Position numbers and translations under genes: made by a program | Shown: in pieces, positions 6,971 through 61,387 of the stretch | Numbering within the stretch: position 1 is the stretch's first letter | How the letters are laid out: every line of letters begins with the position of its first letter | From: Gouania willdenowi | Lineage: Eukaryota | NCBI RefSeq assembly: GCF_900634775.1 | Contig: NC_041064.1 | Location: 1,508,717 to 1,572,716 of the forward strand | Direction: 5' to 3' | DNA length: 64,000 nucleotides | Notes under the pieces: model-generated | Database searches by the model: none | Seen by the model: only the letters and a program-made list of their open reading frames with translations | Told to the model about the DNA's origin: nothing

Positions 6971-8059
6971 TCAGCGTTTCCGCTCTCTGTGCAGCAGGTT
7001 AATATCACTGGAGCCAGGCTTCATTATCTGAAAGGTAACAATGAGCTTGATGGACTTTCTGAACCAGGGGTAAAACAGTGCATAGATCAGAGGGTTGAAA
7101 AAGGAGTTCAGGTAAAACAGACAAATCACAAAAGCCAAAGTGGAAGCATTTAAAACAGAGTCTGCTCCAGTAATAGAAACACAAAAATATGGACAGGTGC
7201 ACAGGAGGAAAACCACAATGACAACGCTGATTGTGCTGAAAGCTTTAAGCTCAGATTTCTTTGTGGTGAATTGGGACTCGTGTGCAGGTCTCACAGATGC
7301 AGCATGAGAACGCATAGAATGAGCATGAGACAAAGCCACCACAAACACCCTCAGAGACATCAGTACGATGACAATAACAGGTCCAATAAATGACAGGATA
7401 ATCTCTACAATGCTACCAACATAACTGATAACTACTACACACTCCCCAAGGCACGTGCTGTACTGGCCTGGTTGTTCCAGGTTATCTTTAAGAAGAAAAG
7501 TGTGAGAGATGACAGACATGATCCAGCACAGAGAAACACATACTTTCACTCTGTTTGCTGTAACTTTAGTGGGATACTGCAGAGGTTCACACACTGCCAC
7601 GTAGCGATCCACTGAGAGCAGAACCATTGTTCCTATTGAAGCTGAGGTGAAGATAAAATCCAAATAATAATACACACTACACAACAGTGCCCCAAACAAC
7701 CAACAACCATCAATAAGTGATATTTGGAAGATCATAAGGATGCCCACAAAGAAATCTGAGATAGCCAGAGAGAGGAGGAGGAGGTTGGTGGGAGTGTGGA
7801 GCTTCCTGAAAAGTGAGAGATAAAGAAAAGTCAGATCAGATTTTATGAAAACAGAACCTCCTAAACACTGTGAAAGAATATTTAAATACCTGAAGTGTGA
7901 GATGGAGATGATGACCAGAAGGTTGAGGTTCACAGTCATCACAGAGATGGAGGAGAGGGTGATATAAATCAGCACAGAGACTGAGTGAGGACGCACGATC
8001 CTCCTGCACGATGAGTTAAGATTTGAAAAGCAGAACTCAGCGTCATCAACGGTTTCCAT
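6971..8059 (-). CDS. TAAR-family olfactory GPCR, paralog 1 (inverted copy). Two exons: complement(7890..8059) and complement(6971..7805). Spliced product ~334 aa.
   Basis: 362-aa ORF read-through. TAAR fingerprint NSFFNPLIYALFYPWF. DRY (SVDRYVAVCEPLQYP). C3.25 and D3.32 (YYYLDFIF). It has E5.42 (SIVEIILSFIGP) where the other copies have D. TM6 is CTCPYF. Kozak caaagATGG. Confidence 0.88.
   Translation of the reverse strand: METVDDAEFCFSNLNSSCRRIVRPHSVSVLIYITLSSISVMTVNLNLLVIISISHFRYLNILSQCLGGSVFIKSDLTFLYLSLFRKLHTPTNLLLLSLAISDFFVGILMIFQISLIDGCWLFGALLCSVYYYLDFIFTSASIGTMVLLSVDRYVAVCEPLQYPTKVTANRVKVCVSLCWIMSVISHTFLLKDNLEQPGQYSTCLGECVVVISYVGSIVEIILSFIGPVIVIVLMSLRVFVVALSHAHSMRSHAASVRPAHESQFTTKKSELKAFSTISVVIVVFLLCTCPYFCVSITGADSVLNASTLAFVICLFYLNSFFNPLIYALFYPWFRKSIKLIVTFQIMKPGSSDINLLHRERKR
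7806..7889 (-). other. 84-bp in-frame intron (phase 2) in ICL1 of TAAR paralog 1
   Basis: Minus-strand CAG|GTATTT … polypyrimidine CTTTTCTTTATCTCTCACTTTTCAG|G. If translated it adds 28 aa (RYLNILSQCLGGSVFIKSDLTFLYLSLF) between TM1 and TM2, where TAARs have a very short loop. Confidence 0.8.
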
Positions 8060-8097
8060 CTTTGACCCCTCTGCCTCTCACTCTAATGTTGCACTGA

Positions 8098-8103
8098 TTT
8101 ATA
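8098..8103 (-). promoter_or_regulatory. TATAAA box 44 bp upstream of the TAAR paralog 1 ATG, within the conserved proximal promoter 8060..8400
   Basis: Minus-strand ggttttataaatcagtgcaacattagagtgagaggcagaggggtcaaagATG is identical in all six copies. Confidence 0.5.
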
Positions 8104-8390
8104 AAACCTTTTTTCTTATTGCTACGCCCTCCTTTGATCTGGTAACTTCCTTTTTGAATGAATATTTAGATGATTTGACCTCTGGGTTGTTTTTGCTTAT
8201 TCTGTAAGGTTTTTGAAAAAACCATCCACAAATTCCAATTCCAGAGAAAAGAGAAAATGTTGTGAGCTAAAATGCTCTGCTTAATCCTGTAAAAGGCAAC
8301 TTTAAAAAAATTAAAAATATTGAAGTTCAACAAATGTAAAAAAAAAATTAGCACAACACAATCTAGGACTCGGATGGAAAGTGGAGAATT

Positions 8391-10060
8391 GTGGCGATGG
8401 TGGCGCTGGAACATCTCCAACGAAGACGAAGGAATGTCTCAACGCCGCCGCAGCCGATAGCAGCACCCCCGACGAAGCTAGGGCCCGCGGCAGGAAACGA
8501 CCTCATTGGGCTATTTCACCGGAGCACACTGGGTTATCGCTTTTTTAGTCTTAGTAGATTATGCAACGAGATATTCCAAATCAGTGCCACTGCACACTAT
8601 CTCTGCAAAGAGGCACAGGCACAGTTTCAGGACATTTACCGGGTTGGAATTACAAAAGAAATTCTAACTAACCAGGGCACATTGTTCATATCCCACACAC
8701 TTCAGGAAATATGACTTACTGGGGGTTAAATGTATTCACTGACTGATCACTGACCTATCCCTCTGTTATTTGCAGTGAGGGAGGTTCCCCAGGCCTCCCC
8801 AATTTTTTTCCTTTGAGCTGCTGTACAGCAAGAAACCATGGAGGGTCTTGGACCTGTTAAGAGAAAACTGGGATGAAGGTCCAAGTTCCAGCAAAAATAA
8901 AATACAATACATGTTTAACCTGACCCGTCACGTGATAATCTGCTCCAGGCCCAACAGCGTCAGATGAGCCTGTATGACAGAGCGGCGGAGCTTTGTCACT
9001 TTACACCGGGAGAAAAGGTGTTTGTATTACTCGCTACATCCAATTCTTAATTACTTGCTTAGTGGCAGGGGCCCTTTGTGGTCACACGGCGAGTGAAGTG
9101 GATTATGAGTGAGAGGCGGAGCACGACAGATCTACTACCTCAACCTCCTGGAATGAATGCGCAAGGCAGATCCTGTTTTCCTTGTGTCAGCGATTAAAGG
9201 GAAAGATGAGTTGGGACCTGAGGTACCAAAAACTACGACTCATGCTTCACTTCCCCTTGATGAACATCTCTCACCATCACAGAAAGCAGATGTGTATAAG
9301 TTGCAGGCAAAATTTACGAATGTGTCCTCCCCTCTACCCGGACGTACAACGTTCATTGAACATAAAATAAACATGCACCACGGGTTAACGATAGGTTCTC
9401 TGCCTTATAGTTTACCTGAGCATTAACAGGAAGTAGTGGCGATGTAGCAAATGGTTATAATTGAACAGTTCCACAGCGCATGGAGCAGCCCAATTGTTCT
9501 TGTAGCTTAGAAGGATGGGTCATTGCATTTTTGTGTAGACTATTGTGAACTGAATGAACTATCACGGTTTAATGCATACCCTATGTCCTTGGGGTCGACG
9601 AGCTCCTGGTGGATACCAGTACCAGTTGGGTACTGCTCGCTTTTTTACAATGCTGGATGTAACCATGGGCTACTGCCGATTCCATTGGTTTGTACCAATT
9701 TGTCATGCTTCCTCTTGAGTTGTTCAGTGCTCCTGATGAGTGCTGCGCTCAAACACTGCCTGTGATGACACCTGGGTTGGAACAGTGATGTGAGGGTTGT
9801 TTTATCCCAGCAGGTAATGAGAGTTGATCATCCTGTGGCCTACATTAGCCAGAAACTGCCAGAAAGAGACCATGCACTGTTCTATAGACTCCATAGACTT
9901 TTGTGTTCCATCCCCGTTGTTGAGTGTCTGCTGCAAGTGCTGTGAAGCACAGTTTCTTGCTCTCATAGGCCTCTCCAGCCAAGTTCTCCCATGGGACTGT
10001 AAGCTCTATGATGTAAACAGTCTTGTGAGAGGGCCCAGAATACCAAGTCTGACCTGAGGA
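8391..10060 (+). mobile_element. Decayed Ty3/gypsy-type pol fragment with the integrase upstream of reverse transcriptase (Gmr1-like domain order)
   Basis: INT core at 8500..8714 (…FFSLSRLCNEIFQISATAHYLCKEAQAQFQDIYRVGITKEILTNQGTLF…), with the INT C-terminal piece up to ~9100. About 60 bp later comes the RT N-terminal region at 9157..9426 (…LSPSQKADVYKLQAKFTNVSSPLPGRTTFIEHKINMHHG…). The RT core follows at 9523..9765 (…FCVDYCELNELSRFNAYPM…). All are on the + strand, and the same order recurs at 53100..54950. Confidence 0.55.
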
Positions 10061-11805: not shown

Positions 11806-11843
11806 TCAGTGCAACATTAGAGTGAGAGGCAGAGGGGTCAAAG

Positions 11844-12932
11844 ATGGCAACCGTTGATGACGCTGAGTTCTGCTTTTCAAATCTTAACTCATCGTGCAGG
11901 AGGATCGTGCGTCCTCACTCAGTCTCTGTGCTGATTTATATCACCCTCTCCTCCATCTCTGTGATGACTGTGTACCTCAACCTGCTGGTCATCATCTCCA
12001 TCTCACACTTCAGGTATTTAAATATTCTTTCACAGTGTTTAGGAGGTTCTGTTTTCATAAAATCTGATCTGACTTTTCTTTATCTCTCACTTTTCAGGAA
12101 GCTCCACACTCCCACCAACCTCCTCCTCCTCTCTCTGGCTATCTCAGATTTCTTCGTGGGCATCCTTATGATCTTCCAAATAACACTTATTGATGGTTGT
12201 TGGTTGTTTGGGGCGCTGTTGTGTAGTGTGTATTATTATTTGGATTATATCTTCACCTCAGCTTCAATAGGAACAATGGTTCTGCTCTCAGTGGATCGCT
12301 ACGTGGCAGTGTGTGAACCTCTGCAGTATCCCACTAAAGTCACAGCAAACAGAGTGAAAGTATGTGTTTCTCTGTGCTGGATCATTTCTGTTCTCCATCA
12401 GTCTTTTCTTCTTAAAGATAACCTGGAACAACCAGGCCAGTACAGCACGTGCCTTGGGGAGTGTGTAGTAGTTGTCAGTTATGTTGGTAGTATTGTAGAT
12501 GTTATCCTGTCATTTATTGGACCTGTTATTGTCATCGTACTGATGTCTCTGAGGGTGTTTGTGGTGGCTTTGTCTCATGCTCATTCTATGCGTTCTCATG
12601 TTGCATCTGTGAGACCTGCACACGAGTCCCAATTCACAACAAAGAAATCTGAGCTTAAAGCTTTCAGCACAATCAGCGTTGTCATTGTGGTTTTCCTCCT
12701 GTGCATTAGTCCATATTTTTGTGTTTCTATGACTGGAGCAGATTCTGTTTTAAATGCTTCCACTTTGGCTTTTGTGATGTGTCTGTTTTACCTGAACTCC
12801 TTTTTCAACCCTCTGATCTATGCACTGTTTTACCCCTGGTTCAGAAAGTCCATCAAGCTCATTGTTACCTTTCAGATAATGAAGCCTGGCTCCAGTGATA
12901 TTAACCTGCTGCACAGAGAGCGGAAACGCTGA
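11844..12932 (+). CDS. TAAR-family olfactory GPCR, paralog 2. Two exons: 11844..12013 and 12098..12932.
   Basis: Fingerprint NSFFNPLIYALFYPWF, DRY, D3.32 (YYYLDYIF), D5.42 (SIVDVILSFIGP), TM6 CISPYF. Intact ORF. Confidence 0.9.
   Translation: MATVDDAEFCFSNLNSSCRRIVRPHSVSVLIYITLSSISVMTVYLNLLVIISISHFRYLNILSQCLGGSVFIKSDLTFLYLSLFRKLHTPTNLLLLSLAISDFFVGILMIFQITLIDGCWLFGALLCSVYYYLDYIFTSASIGTMVLLSVDRYVAVCEPLQYPTKVTANRVKVCVSLCWIISVLHQSFLLKDNLEQPGQYSTCLGECVVVVSYVGSIVDVILSFIGPVIVIVLMSLRVFVVALSHAHSMRSHVASVRPAHESQFTTKKSELKAFSTISVVIVVFLLCISPYFCVSMTGADSVLNASTLAFVMCLFYLNSFFNPLIYALFYPWFRKSIKLIVTFQIMKPGSSDINLLHRERKR
12014..12097 (+). other. 84-bp in-frame intron of TAAR paralog 2
   Basis: CACTTCAG|GTATTTAAAT…CTCACTTTTCAG|GAAGCTCCAC. 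Coordinates were verified by counting. Confidence 0.8.
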
Positions 12933-15664: not shown

Positions 15665-17520
15665 GCTTTTTGCTTTGTTCCAATTAACATTGTTAACCCC
15701 CAGCATCGGGGGTGGTTGGTCTGCTGGTTGGGTGCGCCGGGCCTCGTGGGCGCTGTTCCGAGGCGGGGGTTCCCTGGGGGTGGGCCTTTGGTTGGGGCGT
15801 CTTGGGACGCGTTCTCCTGCCATCCGCCTGGGAGCTGGCTGCGGTTCGGTGTGGCGCCGCACTGCCTTTGGCAGCTTCGGGGGGGTGTCTCGTGTCGGTG
15901 TGTGTGTGGCCTCCGTGGGGAGGGGGGGGGCTCTGCTGGTGGCACTTAGTGTCGGGTGGCGGAACCTGGCGGGACCTGGCTGGGGGTGCTTGGGTTCGCC
16001 CGATTATTGGTTGGTGGGTGGCGGGATGGCCCTGTTGGGCGGCTGATAGCGTCCTCTCTGGTCGGGGGGGCCGGGGCTGCCTCCCTGTAGAGGGTTTTTG
16101 CATCATCGTGCTCTGCGGGCCTGTGCTGGGCTGATGTGGGCGCGGACTTCTCTCCTGCCCGGCTGCTCTCTGTTGCGGCGGGGGGGCAGCATCGTGCTGT
16201 GGTGCGTCGGGGGTCGCCCCCTGGACTCCTGGGGGGTGTGGCTGGTGCCTGGCCCTGCCTGGGGGGTGGTAGTGCCGCCGTGCCCCGTGGGGTCTCCGGC
16301 CGTGCTGCTCGGCGCGTCCCTGGGGTCCGCTGTGCCGCGAGCCCGTCTGCGCCATCTACCCTCTCCGGTGGCCCGTCGTGTGGACGGGCCGGGCTCGCAC
16401 CAGACAGGCCTCCTAAATGAACACCTCACTTCACTCCCAGCTGGTCTGGCTCACTTACTTGGTGCACCACACACCCATACCCAACCCTTGGGGGGCTGGA
16501 TGATGGGGCTGGGGGTGGAGGGTGCCACCGCCTATGCTACTAAATAGTGGCACGGGGGTGGCATTCCCACCTCAAATTGCCCTACCAATCCCTCCAATTT
16601 TAATAGCACCTTAAAACACCACCCCCGGAGGGTGCGACCACAACTTCCACCCTCCGGATCTATTGCACCACATACACATATATACACAGAGGTTAGACAG
16701 GGAGCACTGGGCTTGGCCGGTCCTGGCGGGGGTCATCCGGGGTGGGTGGTGCGGGCTGCGCTCTTGCATACCAGTGGGTGCGGCGTGGGGTGGCCCCTGC
16801 TTGGGCGGTACCCGAATTACCGCCTCTAGTTTGTGCATGCCGGTGTGGCGGTCTGGCTGGGCCCTTGGGGGTGAGTGGGGCGGGGGTGCGAACTTTAGCA
16901 ATTACTAAGGCGCATTGCGCTGGGGGTATAAAAAAAAAAGTGACCTGGGGGGCTGGGTTAACCTAGCCCCCCAAACCCTAACCCGCTGACGAATGCACGC
17001 CGGCTGCCCGTTCGTCGCGGCTCTGGTCGTTTGCTGAGCATGGGCCTTGGCCCCTCTGTTGGGGTCTCGGGGGAGGGGGCTCTCCGGGCCCTCCCCTTGA
17101 GGGATTGGGTGCGGGGGTGGTGGGGTGGATGTCGCCTTGGGGTTGGGAGTGGGGTGCGCCGGTTCTTCGGCTCCTAGGTGCTTTCTCGGGTGTGTATGTG
17201 GGGGCAGTGGCTACCTCTCGACTTGGTGTCTTGAGGGTGTCTGGGGGGGCTCGGCCAGTTGGGGGTTGCCTGGGCTCCCTGGGTTTGCAGTGGTGGTTTC
17301 TTGCACATACATCTGTCTACGATGCGCTAGCATGCCTTGGACTGTGGAATAAAACTTGTAGTGGGCTTAACTTCAGACACGTTGATCCCAAATACCTATT
17401 TCAGGTATTACCACTCACTCCTTCCCTCTGTCCACAGCCACCACCATTATAGTTAAGCCTCACGCCTACAACTTCACATCTCACTCCACTTTACAATAAT
17501 CAACTCTTCCCCACCCTTCC
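15665..17520 (+). repeat. Copy 2 of the GC-rich G+T-skewed repeat (~1.85 kb)
   Basis: Near-identical to 29475..31400. It contains CCCTAACCC at ~16970 and the hairpin aaatacctatttcaggtatt near its 3' end. The long ORFs on both strands (e.g. 15693..16355, -) are Pro/Gly/Arg-rich compositional artefacts. Confidence 0.55.
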
Positions 17521-20521: not shown

Positions 20522-21933
20522 GTGAAAGCGTTGTCTGCCACAATAAACAGGGTGATAGCGGGAGACATTATCTCTACTCGAAGGGAGGCTTTAGCCTCTT
20601 CCTGTCAGAGACGGCGCTCCTCTTGTGATCACTTTGTCCCCCAGAACAAGCAGTGCATGCTTGCTCCGAGGGGTATGGCGCTGGCAGCAGGGCTCCTCAT
20701 CTGTGGGAACATTACCTCTGGGGTCGTGCGGCCCGCTGCTGCCAGGGGGCTCTGCCATTGCGTGGGCAAGCCACCTGCGGCTATGCGGAGGCACCATCTT
20801 GTCGCTCTTGTGTCTGCATGCAGCCTGCCCTCAGGAGAGGATGCCACCACTCTGCTGACGGTGCCTCTCTCAGTGAGGGCACCGGAGCACCTGTCCTCTC
20901 TTTCCCTGAGGATAGACAGGAGGGGGCTTGCAGTCCCGCCCTGGGTGTTATGGATGTTATCGAAGGATTACAAACTGCAGTTTGCATCTGTCCCTCCCGG
21001 TTTCGGCGGCATAGTGCACTCCCGGGCCTGGGGAGTTTTGGGCCACATTTTACACAAGGAAATTTCTTCTCTGTTGCACAAAGGAGCTGTGTCGGAATCT
21101 GCTGTCGCAGGCGGAAGGCACGGTTTTCCATCCACGACCACAGAGTCTGGTACTGTGGGCCTGGCCCCTGAGTGGCACAATCTGTTGGCTATAGGGTTAT
21201 CACAGGACGTTATCTCTACCATACAGAGCACTCAGGCCTCCTCTACTAGGTCTTTTAATGACTTTAAGTGGAGGGTATTTAAGAACTGGTGTCTCCAGGG
21301 AGGCCACGTCCCTTTCCAGTGCCTGGTGGGTGTGATTCTGTCATTCTTGCAGGGCCTGATTGACAAGTGCAAAGCCTTTTCCATGGGGAAAGTGTATTTG
21401 GCGGCGATCGCCACCTGTCATTTGGGCTTTGCGGACAAACCGGCGCGTCAGCATCTGCTGATATGCAGCTTTATGAAGGGGGCGTGCAGGCTCCTCCCCG
21501 TGTCCACATTGATGGTTCCACCATGGGATCTGGCGGTGGTTCTGGAGTGTCTTAAGGGACCCCCGTTTGAACCGATGGGTGAGACAAACCTAAAGTTCGC
21601 CTCTCTTAAAACTGTCTTGTTACTGGCTCTGGCTTCAACCAAGAGGATCAGTGACATCCACGTGCTCTCGGTTCACCCGTCGTGCACTCAGCTTTCCTCA
21701 GGTGACGCAAGGATCATTCTGAGACCCAACCTTTGTGCCGAAGGTGGTGGGCTCATGTTCTCCCATTGACCTGCTGGCCTTTTCTGCCTCACAGGGTGAT
21801 CAGCGGCCTCACTTATTGTGTCCTGTTTGTGCGATCCATACTTATATGGATAGGACAAGGACCCTCAGGAGGAGCAAACCAGCTGTTCGTCTCCTGGGCC
21901 AACTGTCATAAGGGGAAGCCTCTGTCAAAGTAA
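20522..21933 (+). pseudogene. Tyrosine recombinase (integrase-like) gene of the DIRS/Crypton-type element, frameshifted. Its C-terminal catalytic part is split by the LINE insertion at 22060 and resumes at ~24230..24310.
   Basis: …WDLAVVLECLKGPPFEPM…LKTVLLLALASTKRISDIHVLSV… (box-I Arg context). …LCPVRAIHTYMDRTRTLR…LFVSWAN…(K)PLSK… After the insertion comes …QDICAPAS.SSPHTFVRCYMLDV…, the motif that carries the catalytic Tyr in DIRS-type YRs. Confidence 0.6.
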
Positions 21934-22059: not shown

Positions 22060-24230
22060 GTGTCTGTCAGAATCAGAATCAGAATCAACTTTATTGACCA
22101 AGTAATGTATTGAATACACATGAGGAATTTGTCTTGGTGAACCTGTGCTCTCTCTGATAGTGTAAACATTAAATAAAAACAATCAACTAGAATAAAGAAA
22201 AATAAATAAAAAAGAAGTATAACATAAATATAAATAGTTAGACTAAGAACAATCAACTAGAAAAAAGAAAAATAAATAAAAAAAGTTAAAATAAATATAG
22301 AGTACTTAGACTAATATGTGCAAACTAAATAAAATAACAAGATAATGATAATAGTAATAGTAATAATAATAATAATTATTATAATAATGAAATGAAATAA
22401 AAATACAATAATAATAATAATAATAAGATAATACTGCAGTAGTGCATTGATGAGTAGTGCAGGTGAACATTTAAATGAAAATATTATGTCCATGAACATT
22501 TTCAGTGACAGGTTGATCCAGGGTTGTTATGTTTAGTTCCAGGTTATTTCACAGTAACAGAAACAGGTCTGACACTCTATGACTGTTTAGTGTTGATCAG
22601 AGTGACAGCCTGGGGGAAGAAACTGTTTTTATGGCGGGTAGTTTTGGCGTACAGTGATCTGTAGCGTCTGCCGGAGGGGAGGAGTTTGAACAGATTGTGT
22701 GCAGGGTGTGAGGGATCTGCAGTGATGTTACCTGCCTGTTTCCTGACCCTGGACAGGTATAGGTCTTGAATGGAGGGCAGATCAACACCAATGATCTTTT
22801 CTGCAGTCCTGATTATCCTTTGTAGTCTGTGTCTGTCTAGTTTGGTTGTAGATCCAAACCAGACAGTGATGGAGGTGCACACAACAGACTGAATGATGGA
22901 GGTGTAGAACATGATCAGCAGCTCCTGGGGCAGGTTGAACTTCCTCAGCTGACGCAGGAAGTACATCCTCTGCTGTGCCTTTTTCCTGGTTGTGTCTATG
23001 TGGGAGGTCAACTTCAGGTCCTGTGAGATTGTGGATCCCAGGAACCTGAAGGAGTCCACGGTAGCCACTTTGCTATTCAGAATGGTAAGGGGGTGGGGGG
23101 GTGGGATTTCTCCTGAAGTCCACTGTCATCTCCACAGTCTTGAGCGGGTTCAGTTCCAGATGGTTCTGACTGCACCAGAGAGCCAGCTGTTCCACCTCCT
23201 GTCTGAAGGCAGACTCGTCCCCATCCCTGATGAGACCGATGATGGTGGTGTCGTCTGCAAACTTCAGGAGTTTCACAGAGGGGTCCCCTGAGGTGCAGTC
23301 ATTGGTGTAGTGGGAGAATAGAAGTGGGGAGGGAACACACCCCTGAGGGGCGCCAGTGCTGAGTGACCGGGTCCTAGATGTGATACTTCCCAGCCTTACT
23401 TGCTGCTTCCTGCCAGACAGGAAGTTGGTGATCCACTGACAGGTGGAGGCCGGCACTGTGAGCTGGGTGAGTTTCTGGTGAAGGATGTTCGGGATGATGG
23501 TGTTGAACGCAGAGCTGAAATCCACAAACAGGATCCTAGCGTAGGTCCCTGGGGAGTCGAGGTGATGCAGGATGTAGTTCAGTCCCATGTTGACTGCATC
23601 CTCGACAGACCTGTTTGCCCGATAGGCAAACTGCAGGGGGTCCAGCAGGGGTCTTGTGATGTCCTTCAGGTGGCTCAATACCAGCCTCTCAAAGGACTTC
23701 ATGACTACGGACGTCAGGGCAATGGGTCGATAGTCAATGAGTCCTGTGATGGCAGGTTTCTTTGGGACTGGGATGATGCTGGAACTTTTGAAGCAGGATG
23801 GTACTTCACACAACTCCAGTGATGTATTGAAGATCCGTGTGAAGATGGGAGCCAGCTGCTCAGCACAGGATTTCAGGCAGGAGGGAGATACTGGTCCTGG
23901 AGCCTTTTTGATCTTTTGTTTCTTGAATAGCTGGCACATATCTCTTTCATTGATCTTCAGGGCTGAGTCCAGGTGATGGGCTGATGCTAATGAGCTGGGG
24001 GGTGGGTGTGAAAACCTGCAGTAAAAGCTATTCAGGTCTTCAGCCAGTCATATTGTTACCTGCAGGGTGGGGGGAGGGTTTCCTGTAGTTAGTAACCTCA
24101 CACAGGCCTTTCCACACTTCTGAAGGGACTTTGTTTCAGAAGCTTTGTTTTAGCTTCTCAGTGTAGCACCTCTTGGCTACTCTGATCTCCTTGGTTAGTG
24201 TGTACTTAGCCTGCTTAAACAGGACCCAGG
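22060..24230 (-). mobile_element. 5'-truncated LINE (L2/CR1-like) 3' fragment nested inside DIRS-like copy A. The RT C-terminal half and (AAT)n / A-rich tail region lie at 22080..22450.
   Basis: RT ORFs 23073..23939 and 22577..23068 (-) have the FADDTT motif (…LLKFADDTTIIGLI…) and the common fish LINE C-terminus …LYLSRVRKQAGNITADPSHPAHNLF…QAVTLIN. The segment is absent from the otherwise collinear copy B (36130..36240 is contiguous). Confidence 0.7.
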
Positions 24231-25698: not shown

Positions 25699-26787
25699 AT
25701 GGCAACCGTTGATGACGCTGAGTTCTGCTTTTCAAATCTTAACTCATCGTGCAGGAGGATCGTGCGTCCTCACTCAGTCTCTGTGCTGATTTATATCACC
25801 CTCTCCTCCATCTCTGTGATGACTGTGTACCTCAACCTTCTGGTCATCATCTCCATCTCACACTTCAGGTATTTAAATATTCTTTCACAGTGTTTAGGAG
25901 GTTCTGTTTTCATAAAATCTGATCTGACTTTTCTTTATCTCTCACTTTTCAGGAAGCTCCACACTCCCACCAACCTCCTCCTCCTCTCTCTGGCTATCTC
26001 AGATTTCTTCGTGGGCATCCTTATGATCTTCCAAATATTACTTATTGATGGTTGTTGGTTGTTTGGGGCGCTGTTGTGTATTGTGTATTATTATTTGGAT
26101 TATATCTTCACCTCAGCTTCAATAGGAACAATGGTTCTGCTCTCAGTGGATCGCTACGTGGCAGTGTGTGAACCTCTGCAGTATCCCACTAAAGTCACAG
26201 CAAACAGAGTGAAAGTATGTGTTTCTCTGTGCTGGATCATTTCTGTTTTCTATCAATTTTACCTTTTTAAAGATAACCTGGAACAACCAGGCCAGTACAG
26301 CACGTGCCTTGGGGAGTGTGTAGTAGTTGTCAGTTATGTTGGTAGCATTGTCGATGTTATCCTGTCATTTATTGGACCTGTTATTGTCATCGTACTGATG
26401 TCTCTGAGGGTGTTTGTGGTGGCTTTGTCTCATGCTCATTCTATGCGTTCTCATGTTGCATCTGTGAGACCTGCACACGAGTCCCAATTCACCACAAAGA
26501 AATCTGAGCTTAAAGCTTTCAGCACAATCAGCGTTGTCATTGTGGTTTTCCTCCTGTGCACCTGTCCATATTTTTGTGTTTCTATGACTGGAGCAGACTC
26601 TGTTTTAAATGCTTCCACTTTGGCTTTTGTGATGTGTCTGTTTTACCTGAACTCCTTTTTCAACCCTCTGATCTATGCACTGTTTTACCCCTGGTTCAGA
26701 AAGTCCATCAAGCTCATTGTTACCTTTCAGATAATGAAGCCTGGCTCCAGTGATATTAACCTGCTGCACAGAGAGCGGAAACGCTGA
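25699..26787 (+). CDS. TAAR-family olfactory GPCR, paralog 3. Exons 25699..25868 and 25953..26787.
   Basis: Same motifs as paralog 2. Its distinct residues are IFQILLIDG, CIVYYY, ISVFYQFYLFKDN, TM6 CTCPYF. Confidence 0.9.
   Translation: MATVDDAEFCFSNLNSSCRRIVRPHSVSVLIYITLSSISVMTVYLNLLVIISISHFRYLNILSQCLGGSVFIKSDLTFLYLSLFRKLHTPTNLLLLSLAISDFFVGILMIFQILLIDGCWLFGALLCIVYYYLDYIFTSASIGTMVLLSVDRYVAVCEPLQYPTKVTANRVKVCVSLCWIISVFYQFYLFKDNLEQPGQYSTCLGECVVVVSYVGSIVDVILSFIGPVIVIVLMSLRVFVVALSHAHSMRSHVASVRPAHESQFTTKKSELKAFSTISVVIVVFLLCTCPYFCVSMTGADSVLNASTLAFVMCLFYLNSFFNPLIYALFYPWFRKSIKLIVTFQIMKPGSSDINLLHRERKR
25869..25952 (+). other. 84-bp in-frame intron of TAAR paralog 3
   Basis: CAG|GTATTT…TTTTCAG|G. Coordinates verified. 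Confidence 0.8.
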
Positions 26788-38391: not shown

Positions 38392-39480
38392 ATGGCAACC
38401 GTTGATGACGCTGAGTTCTGCTTTTCAAATCTTAACTCATCGTGCAGGAGGATCGTGCGTCCTCACTCAGTCTCTGTGCTGATTTATATCACCCTCTCCT
38501 CCATCTCTGTGATGACTGTGAACCTCAACCTGCTGGTCATCATCTCCATCTCACACTTCAGGTATTTAAATATTCTTTCACAGTGTTTAGGAGGTTCTGT
38601 TTTCATAAAATCTGATCTGACTTTTCTTTATCTCTCACTTTTCAGGAAGCTCCACACTCCCACCAACCTCCTCCTCCTCTCTCTGGCTATCTCAGATTTC
38701 TTCGTGGGCATCCTTATGATCTTCCAAATATCAGTTATTGATGGTTGTTGGTTGTTTGGGGCGCTGTTGTGTTTTGTGTATTATTATTTGGATTTTATCT
38801 TCACCTCAGCTTCAATAGGAACAATGGTTCTGCTCTCAGTGGATCGCTACGTGGCAGTGTGTGAACCTCTGCAGTATCCCACTAAAGTCACAGCAAACAG
38901 AGTGAAAGTATGTGTTTCTCTGTGCTGGATCATTTCTGTTTTCTGTCAATCTTTTCTTCTTAAAGATAACCTGGAACAACCAGGCCAGTACAGCACGTGC
39001 CTTGGGGAGTGTGTAGTAGTTGTCAGTTATGTTGGTAGCATTGTAGATGTTATCCTGTCATTTATTGGACCTGTTATTGTCATCGTACTGATGTCTCTGA
39101 GGGTGTTTGTGGTGGCTTTGTCTCATGCTCATTCTATGCGTTCTCATGTTGCATCTGTGAGACCTGCACACGAGTCCCAATTCACCACAAAGAAATCTGA
39201 GCTTAAAGCTTTCAGCACAATCAGCGTTGTCATTGTGGTTTTCCTCCTGTGCATTAGTCCATATTTTTGCATTTCTCTGACCGGAGCAGACAATGTTTTA
39301 AATGCTTCCGCTTTGACTTTTGTGACTTGTCTGTTTTACCTGAACTCACTTTTCAACCCTCTGATCTATGCACTGTTTTACCCCTGGTTCAGAAAGTCCA
39401 TCAAGCTCATTGTTACCTTTCAGATAATGAAGCCTGGCTCCAGTGATATTAACCTGCTGCACAGAGAGCGGAAACGCTGA
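38392..39480 (+). CDS. TAAR-family olfactory GPCR, paralog 4. Exons 38392..38561 and 38646..39480.
   Basis: Distinct residues: ISVIDG, CFVYYYLDF, ISVFCQSF, TM6 CISPYFCISLTGADNVLNASALTFVTC. Confidence 0.9.
   Translation: MATVDDAEFCFSNLNSSCRRIVRPHSVSVLIYITLSSISVMTVNLNLLVIISISHFRYLNILSQCLGGSVFIKSDLTFLYLSLFRKLHTPTNLLLLSLAISDFFVGILMIFQISVIDGCWLFGALLCFVYYYLDFIFTSASIGTMVLLSVDRYVAVCEPLQYPTKVTANRVKVCVSLCWIISVFCQSFLLKDNLEQPGQYSTCLGECVVVVSYVGSIVDVILSFIGPVIVIVLMSLRVFVVALSHAHSMRSHVASVRPAHESQFTTKKSELKAFSTISVVIVVFLLCISPYFCISLTGADNVLNASALTFVTCLFYLNSLFNPLIYALFYPWFRKSIKLIVTFQIMKPGSSDINLLHRERKR
38562..38645 (+). other. 84-bp in-frame intron of TAAR paralog 4
   Basis: Coordinates verified. Confidence 0.8.
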
Positions 39481-40984: not shown

Positions 40985-43900
40985 TTTTATTTATTCAGTT
41001 TATTTCCGACATGGTTGCATTCGCATTTTTTTTTTTTTTGTACATGCCGAAAAAGGAGACGAGAGAAGCAGGTTGCTTATCCGAGTCCCGTCCCCTATTA
41101 TGAACACAGAAAATTTACATCAGAGCTCGTCTCTCTGGTCAAACATTCTTTGGTTCTGAACACGATTTCATTTTTTTTTTTTTTTTGTCCTTTTTTGTGT
41201 AGGATTTAATTCTCATCTGTAGTCAGTGTTGTCTTTTTTTTTTTTTTTTATTCTTCCTCTCCATCGTTGTTCGTGTCGTCCTTCTTCCCCGTAGATTTCA
41301 TTCCCAGACGTTGTTTGTGTTCCTCCAGTTCAAAAGAAAAGTTCATCTTCTTTCTCATTGATGTGTTGATCTCGTATTCTTGCAAAAATGTCTTCCAAGT
41401 TTTTTCTTTATATCTCGCCAAGTTTGCAGCTTGTTTTGTCTCTGCATCAAGGTTATTCCAGCTGGTAATAGCTCTATTGACAGTGCTGTATTTTACAATG
41501 TTAGATTTAACCCTTTCTTGTATAATCACATTATTATGTCTTAGTTCATAAGCAGTGTGTTTGTATGTGAAACGTTTTTGTATTTGATATGGGAGTGTTT
41601 TAAGTGAGGCCCTAAATGCGAGAATTTGTGTGTTGTAGTGTATTATTTCTTGCAGTTTTAGGTATTTGGCCTTTTCAAATAGTTCATTTGTGTGTGTGTT
41701 GTGTGGTGCTTTATATAAAATCCTAATTGCTTTTTTTGTAGTTTAAATAAAGGTTCAAGATACATTTTGTAGGTGTTTCCCCAGATTTCTGAGCAGTAAT
41801 TTAAATGTGACCCAATAAGGGAAGAATAGATTGTCTTCAGTGATGTTGTTTGTAGTATTTGTTGTAATTTCCATAGGATGAAGCTGCTTTTAGCAACTTT
41901 GTTTTTAACTACTTGTATGTGTTTTTTCCAGGTCAGTTTCTCATCTATCCACACTCCTAGTGCTCTATATTCTTTTACTTGTTCTATTATATCCATGTCT
42001 AGTTTCAGTCTAATATTTTCTGTTATTTTTTTATTTCCAAAGCTGATGAATTTTGTTTTGCTGACGTTTAGGGCTAGTTTATTTACATTGAGCCATGTTT
42101 GGATTTTTGATAGTTCCTCATTCGTCGTTTCTATTAGAGTTTTAATGTCTTTACCTGAACATAGAATGGTTGTGTCGTCTGCAAACAGCGTTAGTTTAAG
42201 GCAATTTGAGACTTTGAAAATGTCGTTTATTTATAGAATGAACAGTTTTGGCCCTAAAATCTAACCCTGTGGTACACCACATTGTATGGTTTGGCATATT
42301 GATATGTTTTGTTCAAAGTCCACATATTGGTTCCTATTTCTCATATAACTTTTAACCCAGTTTAAGGCGTTGTGCCTAATGCTGTAGTTTTGAAGTTTTT
42401 CTTCCAGAATATCATGGTTTATTGTGTCAAATGCTTTTTTAAGGTCCAAAAAAATGCTGAATACAAATAAATTGTTTTCTAATGCATCTCTTATATTTCC
42501 CGTGGTATCAGTTATAGCCATTGCTGTTGAACGTCCTTTTCTGAACCCATATTGGCCTTCATGTAATATATTATTCTCTTCTATGAATTTGTCCAGCCTT
42601 TTCATGAACAGTTTTTCTAGAAGTTTTGATAATTGAGGTAATATTGAAATAGGTCGATAGTTGGTGAAATCTCGTTTGTCTCCACTCTTGTGGATCAGTC
42701 TGATTTTTGTGATTTTCATTTGGTCTGGGAAAATACCATTTTTGAATGAGAGATTGCTGATATATGTTAGCGGTGGTGTCATTTCAGCTGTTATAGTTTT
42801 TAGTAGACTCATAGTTAGATTATTAACGTCTCTGGATTTTTTTGAATTACAGTTTGTAATGATTGCTTTCACCTCTGCTTCCGTTACTTCTTCAAGTGTT
42901 AAATACTTATCATTCTCTATATTCTCACTGTCAAAATGGTTCCATTTAAGTGTTGGATGTTGATAGATTCCTCTCCCAGTCTCCATTCCAATATTTATAA
43001 AGAAATTATTAAGTTCTTCTGCGATTTTTTTTCTTATTGTATTCCTTTAAGTTGTTTATTATAAAATGATCTGTGGCTTCTTCTTTGCTTTTACGCATAG
43101 TTATGGAATTTACAATTTCCCAAAGTTTTTGGTTTTTGTTTTTATTCTTTTAATTGTTTTTCATAATATTCTCTTTTTTTTTCTCTTAGGAGAGTGTTGA
43201 CTTTGTTTCTGTATTTTTTGTATCGTAGTTCTGTTTTCAATGTTTTATCTTTAAGATATTTTTTATATAGTGTTTTTTTTTTTTTGGATGTGTTTGCTAA
43301 TTTTTTATCAATCCAGGGTATTGTGTTTGTCTTATGGTTGATTGTTATTTGTTTCAAAGGGCAGCATTTATCATATATTGTAGTTATTATGTCAGTGAAT
43401 GTGTCATATGCTCTGTTCACCTCCTGTTTTGTGTAAACCTCCTTCCACGTTTCTGTTCTTATCTGTTGTTTAAAGTTTTCTAGCTGTTTTTCTCCTTCCA
43501 GTCTTTTGTATGTTTTTGGTTCTAGTGTTTGTAGGTGGATGCTGTCGTTAGTATTAACTATTGTAAATATTGGTAGATGGTCAGAGATGCCATTTATTAA
43601 TATTCCATTGGTTAGATCTGAATTTTGTATGTTTGTGAAGATGTTGTCTATCAGTGTTGAGCTGTGTTTATTGATTCTAGTTGGTTTCGTTATAAGAGGT
43701 TTTAGTCCATTTGTGTACATGTAGTTAATGAAGTCTTCGATGTGTGTGTTTTTTAAGGGATTTACAATGTTTATATTGAAGTCTCCACAGATCAATATGC
43801 TCTAGTGTTTAGCCTTTTCTATTATTTTGGTTAGGTTCTCATTAAATATGTCTATTTTGCAATTAGGAGCTCGATACAAACAACAGATTAATATGTTCTC

Positions 43901-45240
43901 TCCCTTTGGTCTCGTTATTTTTACTGTTACACATTCCATTACTCCTTCCACAGTTGTACTCATCGACTCTAGTATCTCCATTTCATTGTTATCTTTGATG
44001 TATAATGCCACCCCACCACCTTGCTTATATAATCTGTTTTTACAGACAAATTTATATCCTTTTATCGTAAAATTCATACCTTTCTCTTCATTTAACCAAG
44101 TTTCTGACAGTGCTATTATTTCAAACTTGTACAAGGTTGTAATGTAATCCTTAATGTTTTCAAAATTTGCATACATACTACGACAATTGAAATGAATAAG
44201 TGACAGACCTTTTTTACTCTTGGTTTCCACATTGAATTCATTGTCCGTAAAGTAAGCACAGTCTGAGTCTTGTTTCCAGTGTTTATATAGATCTGGATCC
44301 ATGTCCGTGTTTACCATCAGTAATGTTGTTGTTTAGGTGGATCCTTCGTATTTTCCCAAGTCTTCCATCGTTTTGATGAGGATTGGTTTCCCGTTCTCTT
44401 CTCCCAGTGGTGTGATATAAATCCTGCAGTTTCTTGTCCACGTCCTCAGAATTTTTCCTCCTTTTTTTATTTGGCGTGCCTTCCATGCGATGCTTGCATT
44501 TTGTTTAGTCAGGTTTTCATTGATGTACACCTTCGTTCCCTTCAGTTTATTTCCTTGCTTCAGTAGTTGCCCTTTAAATTTCATATTCGTGAAAGTGATT
44601 TTTACAGCTCTGTTATCATTACGCTTTGGCAGGAGATGGCAGGAGTTGATGTTGTCAGGGTTCAACACAATGTCCTTCGACTCCAAGTAGTCAACGACCT
44701 GTTGTTCAATCGATTTTGTGTCTTCGTCATTCGGTTCCGTTGCCTGTCTCAACGCACACGCGTAACTCCTGGGTATTATCTTTAGGCCTGTAATGATGAC
44801 ATCTTTCTCTCTTTCCTTTTGTTCCAGCTCTTCGACCCTCGCGTTCAACAGTTTTATTTCTTCAGCATTCTTCTCATTCTGTTGTTTCAGTACCTTTGCT
44901 TCACTTTGAAGGTTTTCCAGTGATTTTTCCAGCGTCTTTTCCAACGACTTTATCTCGGCTGTTATCCGTGTAGATAGATCGTCTTTGATAGAAGATAGAT
45001 CGTCTTTGAGGTTTCGTATCATCTCCTTGACCTCTTCCAAACCTGGATCAGGTTCTGTAGCGCCTGCAGGCGGTTTTTTTACCATTTTTCTTTTCATCTT
45101 GGGCCCAAGTTTTATTTCTCAGGCTGTCCAGCTGCAGCTGTAAGCTGTTAATCTCACAAGGTTGTGTTATCGGAGCGAGTGAACACACGTCCTCTCTCTT
45201 CGAAGACCAGAGAGAAGTGAATATGGGCCACTTTTGTTTT
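40985..45240 (-). mobile_element. Near full-length but decayed L1/Tx1-like LINE. Contents: 5'UTR, ORF1 (intact), ORF2 APE endonuclease + RT + C-terminal domain split by frameshifts, and a 3'UTR with internal poly-A.
   Basis: ORF1 is at 44333..45097. APE pieces are at 43802..44317 (…LSLIHFNCRSMYANF…IIALSETWL…GGGVALYIKDN…) and 43142..43795. RT pieces are at 42261..42986 (…YRPISILPQLSKLLEKLF…GQYGFRKGRST…FLDLKKAFDTINHDIL…) and 41658..41996. The C-terminal piece is at 41248..41529. Poly-T runs on + at 41161..41185 and 41237..41255. Confidence 0.75.
44333..45097 (-). CDS. LINE ORF1 protein (coiled-coil), apparently intact
   Basis: 254 aa, homologous to 4717..5409. Confidence 0.6.
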   Translation of the reverse strand: MKRKMVKKPPAGATEPDPGLEEVKEMIRNLKDDLSSIKDDLSTRITAEIKSLEKTLEKSLENLQSEAKVLKQQNEKNAEEIKLLNARVEELEQKEREKDVIITGLKIIPRSYACALRQATEPNDEDTKSIEQQVVDYLESKDIVLNPDNINSCHLLPKRNDNRAVKITFTNMKFKGQLLKQGNKLKGTKVYINENLTKQNASIAWKARQIKKGGKILRTWTRNCRIYITPLGEENGKPILIKTMEDLGKYEGST

Positions 45241-48781: not shown

Positions 48782-49870
48782 ATGGCAACCGTTGACGACG
48801 CTGAGTTCTGCTTTTCAAATCTTAACTCATCGTGCAGGAGGATCGTGCGTCCTCACTCAGTCTCTGTGCTGATTTATATCACCCTCTCCTCCATCTCTGT
48901 GATGACTGTGTACCTCAACCTGCTGGTCATCATCTCCATCTCACACTTCAGGTATTTAAATATTCTTTCACAGTGTTTAGGAGGTTCTGTTTTCATAAAA
49001 TCTGATCTGACTTTTCTTTATCTCTCACTTTTCAGGAAGCTCCACACTCCCACCAACCTCCTCCTCCTCTCTCTGGCTATCTCAGATTTTTTTGTGGGCA
49101 TCCTTATGATCTTCCAAATATCACTTATTGATGGTTGTTGGTTGTTTGGGGCGCTGTTGTGTATTGTGTATTATTATTTGGATTATATCTTCACCTCAGC
49201 TTCAATAGGAACAATGGTTCTGCTCTCAGTGGATCGCTACGTGGCAGTGTGTGAACCTCTGCAGTATCCCACTAAAGTCACAGCAAACAGAGTGAAAGTA
49301 TGTGTTTCTCTGTGCTGGATCATTTCTGTTCTCTATCAATCTTTTCTTTTTAAAGATAACCTGGAACAACCAGGCCAGTACAGCACGTGCCTTGGGGAGT
49401 GTGTAGTAGTTGTCAGTTATGTTGGTAGCATTGTAGATGTTATCCTGTCATTTATTGGACCTGTTATTGTCATCGTACTGATGTCTCTGAGGGTGTTTGT
49501 GGTGGCTTTGTCTCATGCTCATTCTATGCGTTCTCATGTTGCATCTGTGAGACCTGCACACGAGTCCCAATTCACCACAAAGAAATCTGAGCTTAAAGCT
49601 TTCAGCACAATCAGCGTTGTCATTGTGGTTTTCCTCCTGTGCATTAGTCCATATTTTTGTGTTTCTATGACTGGAGCAGATTCTTTTTTAAATGCTTCCG
49701 CTTTGAGTTTTGTGATTTGTCTGTTTTACCTGAACTCCTTTTTCAACCCTCTGATCTATGCACTGTTTTACCCCTGGTTCAGAAAGTCCATCAAGCTCAT
49801 TGTTACCTTTCAGATAATGAAGCCTGGCTCCAGTGATATTAACCTGCTGCACAGAGAGCGGAAACGCTGA
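48782..49870 (+). CDS. TAAR-family olfactory GPCR, paralog 5. Exons 48782..48951 and 49036..49870.
   Basis: Distinct residues: ISLIDG, CIVYYYLDY, ISVLYQSFLFKDN, ADSFLNASALSFVIC. Confidence 0.9.
   Translation: MATVDDAEFCFSNLNSSCRRIVRPHSVSVLIYITLSSISVMTVYLNLLVIISISHFRYLNILSQCLGGSVFIKSDLTFLYLSLFRKLHTPTNLLLLSLAISDFFVGILMIFQISLIDGCWLFGALLCIVYYYLDYIFTSASIGTMVLLSVDRYVAVCEPLQYPTKVTANRVKVCVSLCWIISVLYQSFLFKDNLEQPGQYSTCLGECVVVVSYVGSIVDVILSFIGPVIVIVLMSLRVFVVALSHAHSMRSHVASVRPAHESQFTTKKSELKAFSTISVVIVVFLLCISPYFCVSMTGADSFLNASALSFVICLFYLNSFFNPLIYALFYPWFRKSIKLIVTFQIMKPGSSDINLLHRERKR
48952..49035 (+). other. 84-bp in-frame intron of TAAR paralog 5
   Basis: Coordinates verified. Confidence 0.8.
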
Positions 49871-54950: not shown

Positions 54951-54959
54951 AAAACTATA

Positions 54960-60100: not shown

Positions 60101-60260
60101 ATTTCGGGTCACTTTTCTCTGGAATTGGAATTTGTGGGTGGTCTTTTCAAACAACCTTACAGAATAAGCAAAAACAACCCAGAGGTCAAATCATCTAAAT
60201 ATTCATTCAAAAAGGAAGTTACCAGATCAAAGGAGGGCGGAGCAATGAGAGAAAAGGTTT

Positions 60261-60266
60261 TATAAA
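60261..60266 (+). promoter_or_regulatory. TATAAA box upstream of TAAR paralog 6
   Basis: Conserved promoter. Confidence 0.5.
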
Positions 60267-60304
60267 TCAGTGCAACATTAGAGTGAGAGGCAGAGGGGTC
60301 AAAG

Positions 60305-61387
60305 ATGGCAACCGTTGATGACGTTGAGTTCTGCTTTTCAAATCTTAACTCATCGTGCAGGAGGATCGTGCGTCCTCACTCAGTCTCTGTGCTGATTTAT
60401 ATCACCCTCTCCTCCATCTCTGTGATGACTGTGAACCTCAACCTGCTGGTCATCATCTCCATCTCACACTTCAGGTATTTAAATATTCTTTCACAGTGTT
60501 TAGGAGGTTCTGTTTTCATAAAATCTGATCTGACTTTTCTTTATCTCTCACTTTTCAGGAAGCTCCACACTCCCACCAACCTCCTCCTCCTCTCTCTGGC
60601 TATCTCAGATTTCTTCGTGGGCATCCTTATGATCTTCCAATTATCACTTATTGATGGTTGTTGGTTGTTTGGGGCGCTGTTGTGTATTGTGTATTATTAT
60701 TTGGATTTTATCTTCACCTCAGCTTCAATAGGAACAATGGTTCTGCTCTCAGTGGATCGCTACGTGGCAGTGTGTGAACCTCTGCAGTATCCCACTAAAG
60801 TCACAGCAAACAGAGTGAAAGTATGTGTTTCTCTGTGCTGGATAATTTCTGTTTTCTATCAATCTTTTCTTCTTAAAGATAACCTGGAACAACCAGGCCA
60901 GTACAGCACGTGCCTTGGGGAGTGTGTAGTAGTTGTCAGTTATGTTGGTAGTATTGTAGATGTTATCCTGTCATTTATTGGACCTGTTATTGTCATCGTA
61001 CTGATGTCTCTGAGGGTGTTTGTGGTGGCTTTGTCTCATGCTCATTCTATGCGTTCTCATGTTGCATCTGTGAGACCTGCACACGAGTCCCAATTCACCA
61101 CAAAGAAATCTGAGCTTAAAGCTTTCAGCACAATCAGCGTTGTCATTGTGGTTTTCCTCCTGTGCATCTGTCCATATTTTTGTGTTTCTATGACTGGAGC
61201 AGACTCTGTTTTAAATGCTTCCACTTTCGTGATGTTTCTGTTTTACCTGAACTCACTTTTCAACCCTCTGATCTATGCACTGTTTTACCCCTGGTTCAGA
61301 AAGTCCATCAAGCTCATTGTTACCTTTCAGATAATGAAGGATGGCTCCAGTGATATTAACCTGCTGCACAGAGAGCGGAAACGCTGA
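60305..61387 (+). CDS. TAAR-family olfactory GPCR, paralog 6. Exons 60305..60474 and 60559..61387. It has a 2-codon in-frame deletion in TM7.
   Basis: 360-aa ORF. …NASTFVMFLFYLNSLFNPLIY… against …NASTLAFVMCLFYLNSFFNPLIY… in the others. MKDGSSD against MKPGSSD. TM6 CICPYF. D3.32 and D5.42 retained. Confidence 0.85.
   Translation: MATVDDVEFCFSNLNSSCRRIVRPHSVSVLIYITLSSISVMTVNLNLLVIISISHFRYLNILSQCLGGSVFIKSDLTFLYLSLFRKLHTPTNLLLLSLAISDFFVGILMIFQLSLIDGCWLFGALLCIVYYYLDFIFTSASIGTMVLLSVDRYVAVCEPLQYPTKVTANRVKVCVSLCWIISVFYQSFLLKDNLEQPGQYSTCLGECVVVVSYVGSIVDVILSFIGPVIVIVLMSLRVFVVALSHAHSMRSHVASVRPAHESQFTTKKSELKAFSTISVVIVVFLLCICPYFCVSMTGADSVLNASTFVMFLFYLNSLFNPLIYALFYPWFRKSIKLIVTFQIMKDGSSDINLLHRERKR
60475..60558 (+). 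other. 84-bp in-frame intron of TAAR paralog 6
   Basis: Coordinates verified. Confidence 0.8.

Follow-up and report, generated by a model that had tools for sequence, protein, structure and literature searches.

Trace amine-associated receptors (TAARs) carry a family fingerprint, NSxxNPxx[YH]xxx[YF]xWF, at the junction of transmembrane helix 7 (TM7) and helix 8 (PMC8032801). A 2025 review lists the CWxP micro-switch as conserved in TAARs (PMC12573245), the triad D3.32-W6.48-Y7.43 ("DWY") has been called a conserved TAAR motif on the basis of mammalian and lamprey structures (PMC12476453; bioRxiv 10.1101/2025.08.25.669582), and W6.48 is a cadaverine contact in TAAR13c (PMC4914996). In teleosts, Asp5.42 defines class (or clade) III TAARs, most of which are without D3.32, while a minority (the TAAR13s and TAAR14c/d) have both aspartates (PMC4695389). 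Here we describe a stretch of 64,000 nucleotides from the clingfish Gouania willdenowi (contig NC_041064.1, positions 1,508,717 to 1,572,716; “the window”) that holds six class III TAAR genes, all of which encode receptors without the tryptophan at position 6.48 of TM6.

Exactly six intact TAAR genes are present in the window, all but one on the plus strand, each seen as a homologous open reading frame (ORF) of 360-362 codons, and a tblastn search of the window returned no additional TAAR copies or fragments beyond them. Relative to other receptors, every ORF has a 28-codon insert between TM1 and TM2. This insert is an 84-nt intron (GT...polypyrimidine...AG) positioned in intracellular loop 1 (ICL1), and because it is in frame and stop-free, the ORFs read as proteins of 362 or 360 residues with a spurious 28-residue insert. 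In each gene the intron follows ...SHF|R at codon 57 and interrupts the Arg codon (AG|G). A single intron splitting a Phe-Arg dipeptide near codon 55-57 in ICL1 is found in most percomorph class III TAAR genes (cichlid “family A”; PMC4415300), although the cichlid intron was called phase 0 in that study, whereas the introns of the window divide the Arg codon. After splicing, all six proteins are residue-for-residue identical to RefSeq Gouania willdenowi entries named “trace amine-associated receptor 13c-like”. As a locus, this tandem array of six intact two-exon olfactory TAAR genes is ordinary and has been annotated before; the genes are given here with their TM6 motifs:

6971-8059, minus strand: TAAR copy 1, the only inverted copy; exon 1 8059-7890, intron 7889-7806, exon 2 7805-6971; 334 aa spliced; XP_028291866; Pfam 7tm_1 E=3.6e-41; T6.48, C6.49, E5.42; TM6 motif CTCPYF at 7184-7201 (minus strand), 6.48 codon ACC at 7196-7198.
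11844-12932, plus strand: TAAR copy 2; exon 1 11844-12013, intron 12014-12097, exon 2 12098-12932; 334 aa; XP_028291867; I6.48, S6.49; TM6 motif CISPYF at 12702-12719 (plus strand), 6.48 codon ATT at 12705-12707.
25699-26787, plus strand: TAAR copy 3; intron 25869-25952; 334 aa; XP_028291868; T6.48, C6.49; TM6 motif CTCPYF at 26557-26574 (plus strand).
38392-39480, plus strand: TAAR copy 4; intron 38562-38645; 334 aa; XP_028291869; I6.48, S6.49; TM6 motif CISPYF at 39250-39267 (plus strand).
48782-49870, plus strand: TAAR copy 5; intron 48952-49035; 334 aa; XP_028291871; I6.48, S6.49; TM6 motif CISPYF at 49640-49657 (plus strand).
60305-61387, plus strand: TAAR copy 6; intron 60475-60558; 332 aa; XP_028291872; I6.48, C6.49, F7.40; TM6 motif CICPYF at 61163-61180 (plus strand), the state nearest the clade consensus C[LVI]CPY[FY].

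Each ORF matches Pfam PF00001 (7tm_1) with E~1e-41, and the 15 best sequence matches in the PDB are all TAARs. The top Foldseek matches of an AlphaFold2 model (mean predicted local distance difference test score, pLDDT, 74.8; pTM 0.76; seven helices plus helix 8, with TM6 at residues 237-267) are the zebrafish TAAR13c, TAAR13d and TAAR13a complexes with Gs (TMq 0.76-0.78). Every one of the six spliced proteins carries the TAAR fingerprint NSxxNPxxYxxxYxWF, as NS[FL]FNPLIYALFYPWF. The first-pass annotation of this DNA, made from its letters alone, had called the genes TAAR paralogues, and the Pfam, PDB and RefSeq matches bear this out.

A six-frame motif scan found C-x-x-P-Y-F exactly once per gene, in the context VVIVVFLLC..PYFC, and the copy-by-copy C[I/T][S/C]PYF variants reported at first pass were recovered exactly. 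Numbering from P6.50, copies 1 to 6 have T, I, T, I, I and I at 6.48 and C, S, C, S, S and C at 6.49, as in the earlier description of variation between paralogues at these two positions. No copy has a Trp within six residues on either side of the TM6 proline, nor is there one between W4.50 and the Trp of the helix 8 fingerprint (residues 152-303 of the 334-residue protein). In a phmmer search against all PDB chains, “vvfllcIspyf” lies over “gafilcWlpff” of zebrafish TAAR13c (9m2s, E=2.5e-65). TM6 aligns without gaps to TAAR13c, TAAR13a, TAAR13e and TAAR13d (E=2.5e-65 to 1e-62) with P6.50, C6.47 and F6.44 column for column, so that the replaced position is indeed 6.48. The absence of W6.48 in all six copies is confirmed. 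Since the paralogues are ~97-99% identical, their shared lack of the Trp is one inherited state and not six independent observations.

How far does the Trp-less state extend? Among the nearest homologues (116 near-full-length proteins, 60-96% identical, from dozens of percomorph species), 6.48 is Leu in 67, Val in 31, Ile in 15, Thr in two, Phe in one and Trp in none. By entropy this position ranks 30th of 221 TM positions, yet it is Leu, Val or Ile in 113 of the 116, and its neighbours are nearly invariant: C6.47 and F6.44 in every sequence, T3.36 in 113, Y6.51 in 112 and F7.42 in 109. In a wider sample drawn by searching 1.84 billion cluster representatives (50% identity), the D5.42-type TAARs nearest to the query have Leu, Phe, Met or Tyr at 6.48, while the Trp is kept by D5.42-type receptors farther from the query (cyprinid) and by every classical D3.32-type TAAR. 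The Trp-less clusters include sea bream, Betta, mackerel, seahorse and mudskipper, as well as the osmeriform Hypomesus (F6.48) and a piranha “TAAR14j” (L6.48). With this piranha sequence as the seed, a search yielded 112 ostariophysan TAAR14-type proteins, of which the alignment gives Leu at 6.48 in 109, one each of Phe, Ile and Val, and no Trp; CLLPYY (L6.48) is also the motif of zebrafish TAAR14a, b, d, e, f, g, h, i and l. In the sequences of Guo et al. 2022 (data S1), medaka TAAR22, TAAR23 and TAAR31 and Tetraodon TAAR22 have F6.48, medaka TAAR30a and catfish TAAR14 have Leu, and zebrafish and goldfish TAAR16 keep W6.48.

The earlier statement that canonical TAARs have W6.48 holds for TAAR13, the solved mouse and human TAARs and the sampled classical (D3.32, non-D5.42) TAARs; TAAR16 keeps the Trp as well. 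In spotted gar, two receptors that are 67% identical, TAAR14c (XP_006626325.2) and TAAR14d (XP_015209289.1), read CWVPYY and CLVPYY, respectively. This natural W/L pair belongs to a non-teleost and shows that the substitution also occurs outside the teleosts.

In a neighbour-joining (NJ) tree of 60 sequences (100 bootstraps), the euteleost Trp-less clade, all 20 of whose 20 representatives are non-W, has a bootstrap of 71 and the TAAR14 core one of 90. The window genes nest in the euteleost clade within the D5.42 group, sister to other neoteleost subfamilies. Judged from the sampled sequences, replacement of W6.48 is an old trait that goes back at least to the shared ancestor of the osmeriform and percomorph members, and it is also seen in the TAAR14 lineage down to gar. 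Whether it happened once or repeatedly, the loss long predates the clingfish lineage. We regard the gene identity together with the clade-wide, ancestral loss of the Trp as close to certain. The first-pass annotation had presented the missing Trp as a feature of “this lineage”; with no Trp in either homologue set or in any of the 20 euteleost tree representatives, that attribution falls. It had also named, as what would overturn its view, that the substitution be common and well described in the relevant TAAR clade: common it is, but no paper that describes it was found. No explicit mention of W6.48 loss in fish TAARs appeared in the literature covered, which did not extend to the original account of class III (Hussain et al. 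2009). Any published alignment would show the trait and we do not claim it as unknown; it is clade-wide and under-discussed.

Apart from 6.48, the activation machinery is conserved. All six proteins keep N1.50, D2.50, DRY, I3.40, W4.50, P5.50, F6.44, C6.47, P6.50, Y6.51, N7.45 and NPxxY, including an intact P5.50-I3.40-F6.44 (PIF) triad, and these micro-switches are invariant or nearly so across the 116 homologues. Of CWxP, C6.47 and P6.50 are kept and the Trp is absent; of DWY, D3.32 and Y7.43 are present and 6.48 is Ile or Thr. More than 200 bona fide fish TAARs likewise depart from DWY, which is a generalisation from W-bearing TAARs and not a formal definition of the family.

All six copies have D3.32, and position 5.42 is Asp in copies 2-6 and Glu in copy 1; among the nearest homologues, D5.42 is found in 114/116 and D3.32 in 85/116. 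By position 5.42 the window genes belong to class III. They do not share the loss of D3.32 by which class III is also characterised, and its retention places them in the “both aspartates” subset of class III rather than outside the class. D3.32 occurs in the subclade of the window genes (stickleback, cichlid, Parambassis, Salarias, Gouania), and neighbouring neoteleost subclades have S, T, N, L or A there; either Asp3.32 was regained in this subclade or it was lost many times. W7.40 is replaced as well, by Cys in 106/116 of the nearest homologues, and C7.40 is specific to the same subclade.

A Trp-less TAAR with known pharmacology is zebrafish TAAR14d, which was deorphanized in HEK293 cells with a CRE-SEAP reporter as a receptor for agmatine (half-maximal effective concentration, EC50, ~100 uM; Li et al. 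2015, PMC4695389). Mutation of D3.32 or D5.42 reduced or abolished this response (PMC4695389), and the TAAR14d sequence (NP_001076381) has D3.32, D5.42 and L6.48. Thus, TAARs without the Trp can signal. In the scheme of Li et al., D3.32 together with D5.42 is the signature of a di-cationic amine receptor (PMC4695389). The six clingfish receptors are most likely functional Gs/Golf-coupled amine sensors, and from D3.32 and D/E5.42, by analogy with the receptors in that scheme, their ligands would be di-cationic amines of the diamine, agmatine or histamine type.

What might take the place of the indole? Position 7.42 is Phe in the window proteins and Gly or Ala in Trp-bearing TAARs. In the 60-sequence sample, 7.42 is bulky in 29/33 non-W sequences versus 6/27 W sequences, and small (G/A/S/T/C) in 21/27 W sequences. 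A mutual-information scan for columns that covary with the W/non-W state was dominated by phylogenetic signal, and 7.42 was the only one to stand out, as a putative size swap in the pocket core. Sequences with W that are sister to the two Trp-less clades have Phe or Leu at 7.42 as well, which suggests that 7.42 was filled first and the Trp lost later. A bulky residue at 7.42 could partly fill the space beside 6.48, a partial steric compensation. With the indole gone, ligand occupancy would be read through the aromatic cluster Y6.51/F6.52/F6.44 and the proline kink of TM6, and 6.48 may act as a tunable hydrophobic pocket floor that sets ligand size and selectivity in place of an invariant switch. 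The Ile/Thr and Cys/Ser differences at 6.48 and 6.49 would then be part of a broader diversification of pocket-lining residues. Compensation by 7.42 and a part for 6.48 in selectivity are both read from sequence, and we give this mechanism slightly less than an even chance of being right. The “altered activation mechanism or enlarged pocket floor” put forward at first pass is a reasonable proposal, constrained by the ligand-dependent cAMP response of TAAR14d (L6.48) and by the intact state of the other micro-switches. More broadly, and quite tentatively, a very large and old radiation (neoteleost class III TAARs together with the TAAR14s, the latter perhaps independently) may have rebuilt the aminergic pocket core by first acquiring a bulky 7.42, then exchanging W6.48 for an aliphatic residue or Phe, and then using 6.48 as a selectivity determinant.

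Taken as a whole, the reading of the locus as a class III TAAR array with an old, clade-wide loss of W6.48, whose products are amine sensors with a tunable 6.48, is in our judgement probable. Several observations weigh against it. The counts for 6.48 and 7.42 were taken across related sequences with their kinship ignored, and the association has exceptions: gar TAAR14d and medaka TAAR30a combine L6.48 with A7.42, zebrafish TAAR16c combines W6.48 with L7.42, and four sporadic non-W representatives have a small 7.42. The nodes that join the euteleost Trp-less clade and TAAR14 are weak (bootstrap 10-47), so that the NJ tree does not settle one Trp loss versus several. The pLDDT of the AlphaFold2 model is only 57-76 around the outer half of TM6. 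The EC50 of TAAR14d is weak, and loss of the Trp may therefore cost efficacy or potency. In the literature covered we found no expression or ligand data for the six genes or for members of the percomorph clade. Finally, the synonymous differences among the six copies are clustered in the same segments as the nonsynonymous ones; together with the homogenised remainder of the gene, including the intron, this makes patchy gene conversion a serious alternative for any single site.

The differences among the paralogues comprise 32 codons with nonsynonymous and 16 with only synonymous changes (mean pairwise synonymous divergence, dS, 0.033; dN/dS 0.65). The changes cluster at 2.61-2.63, 3.26, 3.33, 4.52-4.61, 5.42/5.43, 6.48/6.49, 6.54-6.61 and 7.34-7.40, and nearly all variable sites lie in the extracellular, pocket-lining half of the helix bundle. 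These sites are enriched among the most variable TM sites of the clade (Mann-Whitney p=3.6e-5). This pattern fits diversification of the ligand pocket. What is locally unusual is not the loss of the Trp but Thr6.48 in copies 1 and 3 (2/116 homologues, one another Gouania paralogue and one from sea bass), Ser6.49 in copies 2, 4 and 5 (6/116) and Glu5.42 in copy 1 (residue 191, GAG versus GAT; 0/116). Copy 1 also has I5.43 and the most divergent end of TM4 (ISHTF). Copy 6 has, at residues 280-285, a deletion of two residues at 7.35-7.36 (top of TM7) and C7.40F, and also P320D, in an intact ORF.

The alternative that survives best attributes the Ile/Thr and Cys/Ser differences to neutral hitch-hiking with patchy gene conversion and with recent duplication, and not to adaptive tuning of the pocket floor. 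It gains from the 16 synonymous-only codons that share segments with the 32 nonsynonymous ones, from the identity of most of exon 1 among all copies, from an overall dN/dS below 1 and from the collapse of copy identity ~270 bp upstream of the ATG. It gains further from the 84-nt intron, which is 100% identical across the six copies while coding dS averages 0.033; this suggests either that the 5' part has undergone gene conversion or that the intron is constrained. Against hitch-hiking, the variable sites coincide with the most variable TM sites of the clade and lie nearly all in the extracellular half, and Thr6.48 arose again independently in sea bass. We consider neutral hitch-hiking less likely than not.

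In an alignment of the repeat units, which contains long copy-specific insertions, the similar region covers columns -270 to about +3400 from the ATG. Similarity of ~96-100% extends from about -270 bp of the ATG through the gene into the 3' flank, ~1.2-1.5 kb past the stop. A 100% identical block lies ~1.7-1.9 kb past the stop (in alignment columns), beyond which identity falls to background. Upstream of -270 identity drops abruptly, and the spacers are otherwise unrelated. From these limits, the homogenised unit is much shorter than the 10-13 kb spacing of the genes.

A second alternative takes the loss of W6.48 and W7.40 as a switch to non-amine ligands, in keeping with a proposal made before 2015 that the clade does not detect amines (cited in PMC4695389). 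The widespread replacement of W7.40 by Cys speaks for it, but all six receptors keep D3.32 and an acidic 5.42, nearly all homologues keep D5.42, and TAAR14d and TAAR16c/e/f detect amines through these aspartates (PMC4695389); we judge such a switch improbable. Lower still stands the view that the genes are decaying or non-functional and that the missing Trp reflects relaxed constraint. A dN/dS of 0.65 is high for a G protein-coupled receptor and copy 6 has its TM7 deletion and C7.40F, but none of the six ORFs is broken, their splice sites are canonical, each has an exact RefSeq model, and DRY, NPxxY, PIF, C6.47, P6.50, D2.50, N1.50 and W4.50 are all kept. Moreover, the non-W state is conserved in more than 200 homologues with 6.48 restricted to aliphatic residues, the Trp-less TAAR14d signals, and the substitutions are concentrated in the outer half that lines the pocket, a pattern known from diversifying odorant receptors. 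In mandarin fish, whose taars were divided only into Class I and Class III, 61 of 68 are expressed in the olfactory epithelium (PMC12560584); that paper reports expression changes and localisation and contains no receptor activation assays, and the main text of Guo et al. 2022 names no neoteleost clade III receptor with a ligand. We rejected a pseudogene reading on the intact ORFs and the retained micro-switches.

A clingfish innovation that brought a newly altered activation mechanism might be read from the absence of the Trp in all six local paralogues, their differences at 6.48 and 6.49, and the rarity of Thr6.48 and Ser6.49 in the clade, but the Trp is missing from the nearest homologues, from the TAAR14-type proteins and from the sampled medaka and Tetraodon TAAR22/23/30/31, and F6.48 in Hypomesus and L6.48 in gar TAAR14d make the trait far older than the clingfish lineage. 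For the Trp loss itself this scenario is already refuted and very hard to sustain, and only the Thr and Ser variants could be lineage-specific. An error of register, with a Trp truly at 6.48, is refuted by the Trp-free residues 152-303 and the gap-free TM6 alignments to TAAR13c/a/d/e and has practically no chance of being correct.

The spacers contain remnants of non-LTR retrotransposons at 454-1494, 23073-23939 and 42261-43795, all on the minus strand; these ORFs match the Exo_endo_phos endonuclease (E=3.6e-7) and the RVT_1 reverse transcriptase (E=9e-31 and 1e-22). Homologous ORFs form the pairs 4717-5409 (minus) and 44333-45097 (minus), and 20522-21769 (plus) and 35068-35808 (plus), with no Pfam match. 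One of these ORF types is Lys/Glu-rich and coiled-coil-like, ending ...GKPILIKTMEDLGKYEGST, and the other shares ...LSKxYxLxFASVP..GIVHSRAWG... The paired ORFs probably belong to repeated mobile elements located beside different TAAR copies. Long Pro/Gln/Arg/Gly-rich low-complexity ORFs at 15693-16355 (minus), 30809-31453 (plus) and 33164-33850 (minus) probably arose by chance in GC-rich repeats.

CWxP and DWY have been generalised to TAARs from mammalian, lamprey and TAAR13 receptors, yet the Trp is missing from whole subfamilies (TAAR14, TAAR22/23/30/31 and the percomorph “TAAR13c-like” expansion), which calls for caution when fish class III TAAR pockets are modelled on W6.48 templates. These receptors provide a natural series at 6.48 (W, F, L/V/I and T, with small or bulky 7.42) for studying activation without a toggle Trp, and the gar TAAR14c/14d pair is a ready-made experiment on how an aminergic-type receptor activates without W6.48. 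By their D3.32 and D/E5.42, the six genes are candidate sensors of diamines or polyamines (“death odour”-type). If the pocket core was rebuilt as proposed above, the DWY hallmark would be inapplicable to the majority of fish TAARs.

Outside the TAARs, there is precedent for class A activation without the toggle Trp. MRGPRX1 and MRGPRX2, with G6.48, activate without the Trp, and in MRGPRX1 this Gly is part of a conserved kink motif of TM6 (PMC10435460); vertebrate odorant receptors have FYGx with Y6.48 (PMC12573245). In such receptors, TM6 motifs at and near P6.50, 6.51 and 6.52 assume the role of the Trp. These lineages are unrelated to TAARs, and the likeness is a functional analogy only: their replacement residues differ and the MRGPRX pocket is shallow, whereas the window proteins keep P6.50, C6.47 and the PIF triad and have an aliphatic replacement.

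The best match in sequence and fold is to the Gs complexes of zebrafish TAAR13c, TAAR13d, TAAR13a and TAAR13e (9m2s, 9m0x, 9m3s and 9m40; cadaverine, putrescine, histamine and agmatine). The window proteins share with them the di-cation signature (D3.32+D5.42), Y7.43 and the TAAR fingerprint, but the TAAR13s have CWxPFF, W7.40 and G7.42 where the window has C[I/T][S/C]PYF, C/F7.40 and F7.42, and identity in the structural alignment is 34-37%. Zebrafish TAAR14d is similar in being of the D5.42 type with D3.32, L6.48 in place of the Trp (motif CLLPYY), F7.42, F6.44, DRY and NPxxY. The zebrafish TAAR14s differ in having I/V7.40 instead of C7.40, and are only ~35-39% identical to the window proteins; they also lie on a different branch of the tree, so their loss of the Trp may be independent. 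The percomorph “TAAR13c-like” class III receptors (cichlid family A, medaka TAAR30/31 and mandarin-fish class III) are 60-67% identical to the window proteins and share the TM6 consensus F-L-[LIV]-C-[LVI]-C-P-Y-[FY], C7.40, F7.42, the Phe|Arg intron in ICL1 and, in most, D3.32 with D5.42. From these relatives the clingfish copies are set apart by the rare Thr6.48 (copies 1 and 3), Ser6.49 (copies 2, 4 and 5) and Glu5.42 (copy 1).

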